From: a virus
Lineage: Duplodnaviria > Caudoviricetes
Direction: 5' to 3' (one strand)
DNA length: 64,000 nt
IMG/VR virus record: IMGVR_UViG_3300025316_001101
The notes below the pieces were generated by a model. That model worked only from the letters and a program-made list of their open reading frames with translations. It was not told the DNA's origin and did not search any database. The position numbers and the translations under genes are program-made. Position 1 is the stretch's first letter, and every line of letters begins with the position of its first letter. Of the stretch, positions 32,164-59,352 are shown piece by piece.

Positions 32164-32175
32164 AATTATTTCCAG

Positions 32176-32270
32176 TACGCCCAGTAGGAATTGCACCTAC
32201 GACCCTCGGTTTAGATTATGGGGCTGACTTGCCCCTAAGACCGATGCTCTATCTCCTGAGCTATGGGCGC
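32176..32270 (-). tRNA. tRNA-Arg(TCT)-like with 22-nt hairpin insertion in the anticodon loop
   Basis: Arg-type body; 29-nt loop CT[TAGGGGCAAGTCAGCCCCATAA]TCTAA. Confidence 0.7.
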
Positions 32271-48928: not shown

Positions 48929-48931
48929 AAG

Positions 48932-49026
48932 TGGGCGGGGCAGGGCTCGAACCTGCGACATTCGGAGCGTAATCAAGCATACACCTGATCCGTTTTCCGA
49001 TGCTCTGCCAACTGAGCTACCCGCCC
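48932..49026 (-). tRNA. tRNA (probably Val, TAC) with 22-nt hairpin insertion in the anticodon loop
   Basis: perfect acceptor, D and T arms; 29-nt loop with GATCAGG-TGTATG-CTTGATT. Confidence 0.65.
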
Positions 49027-56096: not shown

Positions 56097-56171
56097 TCGG
56101 AACGATTGGATTTGAACCAACGACCTTCTTCCCCAACGGAAGACGCTCTAATCTGGCTGAGCTACGTCCCG
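56097..56171 (-). tRNA. Pro-body tRNA with atypical anticodon loop CGTTGGG
   Basis: CGGGACG/CGTTCCG-A; TCTTC-CGTTGGG-GAAGA gives TTG at 34-36 and G33. Confidence 0.6.
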
Positions 56172-57653: not shown

Positions 57654-57662
57654 AACAAACAG

Positions 57663-57737
57663 TGGACCTTATGGGAATCGCACCCATCTGGATTTCTCGG
57701 TGCAAGCGAGACGACCACCCTAGCAGTCCCAAGGCCC
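57663..57737 (-). tRNA. tRNA-Ala(TGC)
   Basis: G3.U70, TCTCG-CTTGCAC-CGAGA. Confidence 0.85.
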
Positions 57738-57785
57738 AAATTTCTAAAAATTCTGAATCCGATAAGGATTCCCAACGAATACGAG

Positions 57786-57878
57786 TGCGAGTGACAGGAT
57801 TTGAACCTGCGACCTCCATAGCGTTCCCGGCTACCACGCCGGTGCTTTGGTGTTCCAATCGGGCAGAACTTCACTCAC
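57786..57878 (-). tRNA. tRNA-like gene with hairpin insertion in the anticodon loop (possible Val AAC)
   Basis: GTGAGTG/CACTCGC-A, T-arm; 25-nt loop containing CCGGC-GTGGTA-GCCGG. Confidence 0.55.
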
Positions 57879-57901: not shown

Positions 57902-58033
57902 TTGACGCCATTCTCTGGAAAGTTACAATGTTTGCAGTCGGGAGATTTTACGAAAAGCGGTTCCGCTCGGCGGGAAGGCTTATCGAGGGAATAGACCGGC
58001 GTTTGGCCTTGCGGCCGAACGCCGGTCTTTTTT
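57902..58033 (+). ncRNA. putative sRNA gene (promoter + terminator, no ORF)
   Basis: TTGACG-N16-TACAAT, about 100 nt, 16-bp hairpin plus T-run. Confidence 0.55.
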
Positions 58034-58231
58034 GTTTAATACACCACCCAAAAGATGTGTTTGAGCCCCCAAATTTACCACTTTGTTGATAGTCTAACTA
58101 GGGAATTGATTCTGACAGCGAATGCTGTTATAATTATTTTGTCAATGACCACTAGATTTTACCCCTATGAACCGATAGAATGTCATGTTGAGTCATGACA
58201 TCCTAGTTCTCTTTTATGAAAGGAATTCGTC

Positions 58232-59032: not shown

Positions 59033-59037
59033 AAAAT

Positions 59038-59124
59038 CGGGCGTTTTATTCGTGTGGGGGTCGAACCCACATGTCCCGGCTGAACGCCGAGAATCCTATC
59101 CATTAGATCAACGATTCAACGCCC
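59038..59124 (-). ncRNA. tRNA-like RNA with extended acceptor stem and atypical loop CGTTCAG
   Basis: GGGCGTT-GAA-TCGT / ACGA-ATAA-AACGCCC; normal D and T arms. Confidence 0.55.
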
Positions 59125-59285: not shown

Positions 59286-59352
59286 ATGCGGCTATTTCAT
59301 TTTGTAGAGGATTCGAACCTCTCCCTCCCGGCCAGCGGGCGCACCGAGACCA
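59286..59352 (-). pseudogene. degenerate tRNA-like element
   Basis: intact T-arm AGAGG-TTCGAAT-CCTCT; CATGCG/CGCATG closing stem; no proper acceptor or D arm. Confidence 0.35.

Follow-up and report, generated by a model that had tools for sequence, protein, structure and literature searches.

Lak megaphages are reported to carry tRNA introns, which have been called "enigmatic" (Devoto et al., 2019, PMC6784885), and phages can evade host defences that cut tRNAs by means of tRNAs whose anticodon loops are altered (van den Berg et al., 2023, PMC10264068). The known phage counter-measures to such defences are tRNAs that are still able to decode. Here we describe a 93-nt tRNA-shaped gene of a huge (giant) freshwater phage, in which the place of the anticodon loop is taken by a 25-nt segment that closes into a hairpin. 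With a probability of roughly 0.45, we read this gene as an unspliced, non-decoding look-alike derived from tRNA-Pro, perhaps a decoy. The reading is backed by the fold of the gene, by its tRNA-Pro ancestry, by the lack of any canonical spliced product and by sibling look-alikes with closed arms in the same phage. The window that was analysed comprises 64 kb and is the final part, in reverse strand, of a 259,024-bp IMG/VR record whose completeness is about 50% (CheckV).

The Gene and Its Fold

Read on the minus strand from 57878 to 57786, the gene runs GTGAGTG AA GTTC TGCCCGATTG GAAC A CCAAA, followed by the 25-nt loop and then by TATGG AGGTC GCAGG TTCAAAT CCTGT CACTCGC A. The loop, given in the initial annotation as GC-A-CCGGC-GTGGTA-GCCGG-G-AAC-GC, agrees with this strand letter for letter. 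The gene and its surroundings comprise the following features:

57786-57878, minus strand: tRNA-shaped gene of 93 nt, putative tRNA-Pro-derived look-alike; cloverleaf fold with 27 standard pairs, body segments matching tRNA-Pro genes
57872-57878, minus strand: 5' strand of the acceptor stem, GTGAGTG, pairing with CACTCGC at 57787-57793 (7 bp, one U.G)
57852-57869, minus strand: D arm, GTTC-TGCCCGATTG-GAAC, in which U14 and A19 replace A14 and G19; A8 and A9 precede it and A26 follows
57816-57850, minus strand: extended anticodon arm, made of a lower helix (CCAAAGC/GCTATGG), a 1x4 internal loop (A / GAAC) and an upper hairpin
57827-57842, minus strand: upper hairpin, CCGGC-GTGGTA-GCCGG, 5 bp and a hexaloop
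57794-57810, minus strand: T arm, GCAGG-TTCAAAT-CCTGT, from sequence and fold
57786, minus strand: discriminator A, from sequence
57745-57771, minus strand: terminator-like hairpin, GAATCC-TTATC-GGATTC and then AGAATTTTTA, 15 nt downstream of the 93-nt gene

The cloverleaf is the minimum-energy fold of the gene (-35.4 kcal/mol, z -2.27, equalled by 6 of 200 shuffles) and has all that is expected of such a structure, namely a 7-bp acceptor stem, a D arm, a T arm and a discriminator, with AGGTC as the variable region. The seven positions of the lower helix consist of six standard pairs and one A.A mismatch, the latter lying within the anticodon stem proper (CCAAA/TATGG), and the outer GC/GC pairs of the 25-nt loop stack on this stem, so that the arm forms a single rod. 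When the arm is folded in isolation, one rod fold occupies 83% of the ensemble (-14.5 kcal/mol, z -2.14). Perfect 5-bp hairpins arise by chance in 6% of random and in 13% of composition-matched 25-mers; given that they are not rare, the evidence lies in the entire cloverleaf with its stacked arm and not in the hairpin alone. The arm might also form the stem GGCGT/ACGCT around an 11-nt loop in which C-CGG-GA would possibly be left over from a Pro(CGG) loop; this fold is not the favoured one, and readings of the internal loop as a K-turn or as a bulge-helix-bulge motif were rejected on geometry. No second copy of the arm or of its upper hairpin was found in the 259-kb record.

The gene is poorly visible to tRNA detection tools. 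ARAGORN with default settings did not call it, either with or without the intron search, and accepts the body as a tRNA under a relaxed threshold once the loop has been shortened in silico. In Rfam, the best clan match is tRNA-Sec with 16.5 bits, and the general tRNA model scores below that (cut-off 29). A canonical 7-nt loop with U33 and purine 37 on a 5-bp stem is lacking, the loop being 25 nt long. At the tertiary positions A8, U14 and G18-A19 stand in place of U8, A14 and G18-G19, and the T loop TTCAAAT is retained.

Genomic Setting

The phage has more than 50 tRNA genes, among which HNH endonuclease genes are interspersed, and it further encodes TnpB, an RlaP-type nucleotidyltransferase, SAM synthetase, a Ro60/TROVE protein and an RNA ligase of family PF09414 (genome 186089-186604). 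No gene for EndA/Sen (PF01974) or RtcB was found in the 259-kb record, which holds about half of the phage. The 93-nt gene stands at the head of the Pro gene run, and downstream of the terminator-like hairpin come an Ala-type tRNA-like gene and then two Pro genes. The hairpin keeps its stem and varies in its loop in strains L005 and L007. A different element lies beyond the terminator in L005, and the neighbouring tRNA-like cassettes come and go between strains. Upstream of the 93-nt gene, no sigma-70-like promoter was found on the gene's own strand.

Several other elements of the neighbourhood may be recorded here. On the plus strand, window 57902-58035 has a near-consensus promoter (TTGACG-16-TACAAT) about 65 nt ahead of a strong 16-bp terminator with a T run, a pair from which an RNA of about 100 nt would result on the plus strand, transcribed divergently from the 93-nt gene; strains L007 and L003 show the exact absence of this promoter/terminator block (about 125 nt, GACCGGC to TTGGTAAAAAA). 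An ORF of 170-189 aa on the opposite strand (57425/57482-57994, plus), predicted by public gene callers (170 aa in L001 and L004), overlaps four tRNA-type genes, has no Pfam or PHROG match and is probably a false call. At window 57659-57733 (minus) lies a tRNA-Ala-like gene missed both by ARAGORN (default) and by Rfam, with acceptor GGGCCTT/AAGGTCC including G3.U70, A73, anticodon loop CTTGCAC (UGC), G8 and a 7-nt variable loop; in L005 it is replaced by a hairpin-like element of another kind. Moreover, the Val(TAC) and Glu(TTC) genes are closely preceded by T-arm-like sequences (GAGAGGTTCGAATCCTCT and GTGGGTTCGACCCCCAC, at window about 59286-59340 and 59033-59090, minus) that have no called tRNA and may represent more unannotated tRNA-like elements.

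Descent from tRNA-Pro

Judged by its sequence, the body of the 93-nt gene is a derivative of tRNA-Pro. Acceptor pairs 3-7 (GAGTG/CACTC) are the same in the Pro GGG gene of the phage and in tRNA-Pro of its relatives L193 and L019; L193 tRNA-Pro has the identical T arm, the stem of which also recurs in Pro GGG; and tRNA-Pro(TGG) of L198 agrees in D stem (GTTC/GAAC), variable loop (AGGTC) and T arm. Differences from tRNA-Pro are concentrated at identity and tertiary positions. In the acceptor, the first two pairs have changed from C1-G72 to G1-C72 and from G2-C71 to U2.G71, and in the core A8/U14 stands in place of U8/A14 and A in place of G19. G72 is a major identity element for ProRS, and proline charging is thus unlikely, as the flip of pair 1-72 removes it. 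Compared to tRNA-Pro, both strands have changed at pairs 1-72 and 2-71 and throughout the anticodon stem with pairing retained, which argues for a constraint on shape after the copy's departure from tRNA-Pro.

Strain Variation and Possible Decay

The neighbouring 146-aa protein is known from identical copies only, on 18 contigs, no homologue beyond these being found. From seven contigs with DNA the 93-nt gene was obtained in three different full-length versions, and L003 has a truncated fourth copy. The versions differ by four substitutions in total, two in stems, one in the D loop and one in the internal loop. In L007 A4 is replaced by G in the acceptor, turning an A-U pair into G.U, and in L005 and L007 T65 is replaced by C, turning G.U into G-C; both stem substitutions therefore keep pairing, all 27 modelled pairs are standard in the three variants with the five helices intact, and the upper hairpin is invariant across the four strain copies. 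No pair altered on both sides was seen among these near-identical copies, the sole ones found. L007 differs at 4 of 93 positions in the gene, compared to 5 mismatches and a gap in about 95 nt of flanks, which is about equal, and for this reason purifying selection is not demonstrated for the gene.

Pattern scans of IMG/VR, both exact and degenerate (T arm plus acceptor, arm, D arm, loops-only), returned nothing or unrelated weak matches of 14-16 bits; a looser body pattern found ordinary tRNAs only, and a loops-only scan of JGI metagenome contigs gave no match. The covariance model (R1), run over the remainder of the genome, over 81 loci that surround a shared phosphoesterase gene and over 36 complete records of related huge phages (up to 511 kb), detected no orthologue. 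The 1554-aa neighbour protein led to no related loci, and 80 further loci held no copy beyond the near-identical strains, nor did the 241 loci fetched besides the 36 records. In L019, the closest diverged relative (phosphoesterase 71% identical), a tRNA-like gene of 103 nt (L019:4984-5086) has about 29-36 nt too many in its anticodon arm; ARAGORN calls it only when introns are allowed, as Trp(CCA) with a 29-nt intron. This gene was rejected as a relative: the two arms have two hexamers in common, and their alignment is not significant (p = 0.14, shuffling).

The chief alternative explanation is that the gene is a decaying or neutral duplicate of tRNA-Pro within the Pro run, which received an insertion in the anticodon loop, lost its identity and tertiary nucleotides and is now functionless. 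The loss of universal tRNA nucleotides (now A8, U14, A19), the A.A mismatch within the anticodon stem, the confinement to near-identical strains, the equal divergence of gene and flanks and the turnover of neighbouring cassettes (L005) are all in line with this explanation, which we nevertheless regard as somewhat unlikely. Against decay count the five intact helices with 27 standard pairs, the two-sided changes that retain pairing at 1-72, 2-71 and in the anticodon stem, the preservation of pairing by both strain substitutions in stems, and the stacking of the insertion as one stable rod and not as a floppy loop.

Mini-Inserts in tRNA Genes and the Question of Splicing

The initial annotation had grouped the locus, as a third insertion tRNA, with two others, which are indeed present at 32175-32270 and 48931-49026. 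Anticodon-arm inserts do recur, in the Arg, Val, Leu and fMet genes of the phage and in its relatives L123, L101 and L019, and to this extent the proposed recurrent class of element holds; the 93-nt locus, however, differs in architecture. All three hairpins named there have a 6-nt loop, but direct abutment on the triplet that follows was found only in Val, the gap being 4 nt in Arg and 1 nt in the 93-nt gene. Homologues sharing the architecture, by which the annotation had proposed to judge such a class, do not extend beyond the near-identical strains.

The inserts of the Arg(TCT), Leu(TAA) and initiator-type fMet genes are 21-22 nt long, each within a canonical tRNA body. Together with the insert of L123 they have a common layout, with 1-2 nt, a 4-5 bp hairpin with the hexaloop MARWCA and then a tail of 5-6 nt, A/T-rich in most. 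The hexaloops in the phage are AAGTCA, CAGTCA and CAGACA and its tails, each of 5 nt, are ATAAT, ATGAA and CTAGA, with ATAAAT also occurring among the tails of the Arg/Leu/fMet/L123 group. Excising any of the four restores a loop with U33. The L123 case is a tRNA-Leu(CAG) of a 390-kb relative (L123:1323-1416) with the 21-nt insert AGGGTCAAACAGCCCATAAAT, a near-twin of the phage Arg insert. In the 93-nt locus the implied insert is 18 nt with a GTGGTA hexaloop and a GAACG tail, and the body is non-canonical, so that it should not count as a third insert tRNA and the reading as a third member of one intron class is not supported. Leaving it out keeps the family sharply defined by its 21-22 nt length, MARWCA hexaloop, short tail and canonical body. 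The nearest analogue of the 93-nt gene is the Val(TAC) gene at 48931-49026, the insert of which is likewise a long rod; unlike the 93-nt gene, it combines a canonical body with the full loop ATTACGC.

Inserts of other kinds were also seen in related phages. A 461-kb relative has an 89-nt tRNA (L101:1501-1589) with a hairpin GTCT-GGCC-AGAC and then TATGAA. Further, tRNA-like genes of 133-134 nt (L142:7792-7925, L157:3225-3358, L188:4336-4469 and L249:2241-2374, also L180 and L205) contain an insert of about 39-60 nt that holds a T-arm-like hairpin, GAGAG-TTCGATT-CTCTC, and are thereby reminiscent of the "tRNA inside a tRNA intron" in Lak phages.

It is quite unlikely that the 93-nt gene encodes a mini-intron tRNA spliced by protein, from which an endonuclease and the phage RNA ligase would excise about 18 nt to leave the anticodon AAC. 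Such a pathway would have precedents in the 21-22-nt inserts of the otherwise canonical Arg, Leu, fMet and Val genes of the phage (that of Arg with its near-twin in L123) and in the tRNA introns reported for Lak megaphages (PMC6784885), the phage has its PF09414 RNA ligase, and the loop has AAC-GC at its 3' end, similar to TAC-GC in the Val gene. However, a 7-nt loop requires the removal of 18 nt, and the only possible product loop is GCAACGC, which lacks U33 and could pair with itself down to a 3-nt loop. The initial annotation had rightly cautioned that U33 would be missing, and this tells against splicing. The arm has its T residues in the hexaloop and in the lower helix (3' strand) only, so that U33 cannot be regained in a 7-nt loop, whatever stretch is excised; deletions made in the arm in silico gave AAC, ACC and similar anticodons, never with U33. 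The would-be position 33 is itself polymorphic, strains L007 and L003 having A where the window has G. When the geometry of the Arg/Leu inserts (1 + hairpin + 5) is applied, 22 nt are removed and a 3-nt loop is left. Neither the hexaloop motif nor the tail motif of the family is present; the body is without U8, A14 and G19, whereas the other insert tRNAs have canonical bodies; and no EndA or RtcB gene is found in the 259-kb record (about half of the phage). A version of the gene free of the insert was not found among the strains. Known intron types were rejected as well. The archaeal/eukaryal bulge-helix-bulge intron has two 3-nt bulges 4 bp apart, and here the unpaired A faces GAAC across one internal loop, the bulges lying opposite each other; a group I intron has a catalytic core of about 200 nt or more, compared to a surplus of 18 nt, and no Rfam intron match was obtained.

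Very improbable is a Y RNA partner of the phage Ro60, with the long arm as Ro60-docking helix: the phage encodes a TROVE/Ro60 protein, and its gene is adjoined by a tRNA-shaped gene with a long anticodon-arm insert and then by an RNA with a weak YrlA-type match, but 72 kb separate the 93-nt gene from the Ro60 gene, the Rfam YrlA model gives no match to it, and its arm is without the CGAAUGC / CUUGUCG helix of the YrlA consensus and of the phage RNA beside Ro60.

Look-Alikes with Closed Arms and a Possible Decoy Role

Other tRNA-shaped genes of the phage provide the context for a non-decoding look-alike. Genome 188112-188492 has four of them, in which two arms consist of 7 bp and a GCAA loop, one of 6 bp and a 5-nt loop, and one is about 95 nt long. 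In the window, a Gln-type gene at 56097-56171 (minus), called as tRNA-Gln(TTG), has the anticodon loop CGUUGGG, with G for U33, which can be closed to 6 bp and a 5-nt loop. This gene has GCCNGATT in its D loop as in the 93-nt gene, the D loop AGCCAGATTA carrying G18-A19, and it is the best non-self match of the covariance model of the 93-nt gene, with 50 bits. A tRNA body joined to a sealed or extended non-decoding arm is what unites these look-alikes, a set without a published family; the 93-nt gene has both and fits this set better than the intron set.

A plausible scenario for the non-decoding look-alike starts from a copy of tRNA-Pro in the Pro gene run of the phage, in which the acceptor stem, T arm and D stem are retained and the anticodon arm, as a closed rod, would permit neither splicing nor decoding. 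The RNA may be transcribed as its own short unit that ends at the hairpin just downstream, and may be trimmed like a tRNA by RNase P and 3' processing. It could then occupy or distract a tRNA-binding factor while itself remaining outside translation, candidates for this factor being a defence nuclease with which the host cuts tRNAs or a phage protein for RNA repair or surveillance. That the RNA acts as a decoy or ligand is speculated by analogy with the other closed-arm mimics of the phage and with the conflict between phages and bacteria over tRNAs (PMC10264068). As it has no usable anticodon loop, it could be a decoy only, not a replacement. In its fullest form, in which the RNA is a working member of a rod-armed set, matures like a tRNA and soaks up or misleads a host defence enzyme that targets tRNAs or a tRNA-handling factor, this scenario is unlikely. 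Against the look-alike reading itself count the loss of U8, A14 and G19, which would weaken the tRNA elbow that many tRNA-binding proteins read, and also the restriction of copies to near-identical strains, the flank-like divergence and the failure to find a sigma-70-like promoter upstream. If the decoy reading were true, it would point to a decoy strategy, in contrast to the known supply of replacement tRNAs. If the RNA is made and stable, it would add to the evidence for non-decoding tRNA-shaped RNAs of huge phages and hence for decoy or scaffold roles.

Comparison with Known Systems

With tRNA-Pro (RF00005) the 93-nt gene has in common a seven-pair acceptor with the GAGTG/CACTC core, A73, the D stem, AGGTC and the T arm. 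It differs in that a 7-nt anticodon loop, U33 and an NGG anticodon are all missing, and in its G1-C72, A8, U14 and A19, with an Rfam tRNA score of less than 16.5 bits. For inserts in general, the nearest published parallel is the tRNA introns of Lak megaphages (PMC6784885). With these introns and with the 21-22-nt mini-inserts the 93-nt gene shares a short hairpin (6-nt loop) by which the anticodon loop is interrupted; in contrast to the mini-inserts, the implied insert is here 18 nt, with GTGGTA and not MARWCA, without an A/T-rich 5-nt tail, and no canonical loop is restored. YrlA-type Y RNAs (RF02553) are alike in joining a tRNA-like module to a long helix and in belonging to a genome that encodes Ro60, whereas the 93-nt RNA has normal tRNA topology with free acceptor ends and no Ro60-binding helix motif. 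Finally, like the phage tRNAs that escape host cleavage (PMC10264068), the gene is of tRNA type, lies in a large cluster and has an anticodon arm unlike the host form. Those tRNAs carry point mutations in a 7-nt loop and decode, whereas the 93-nt RNA has no loop that could serve as an anticodon loop.
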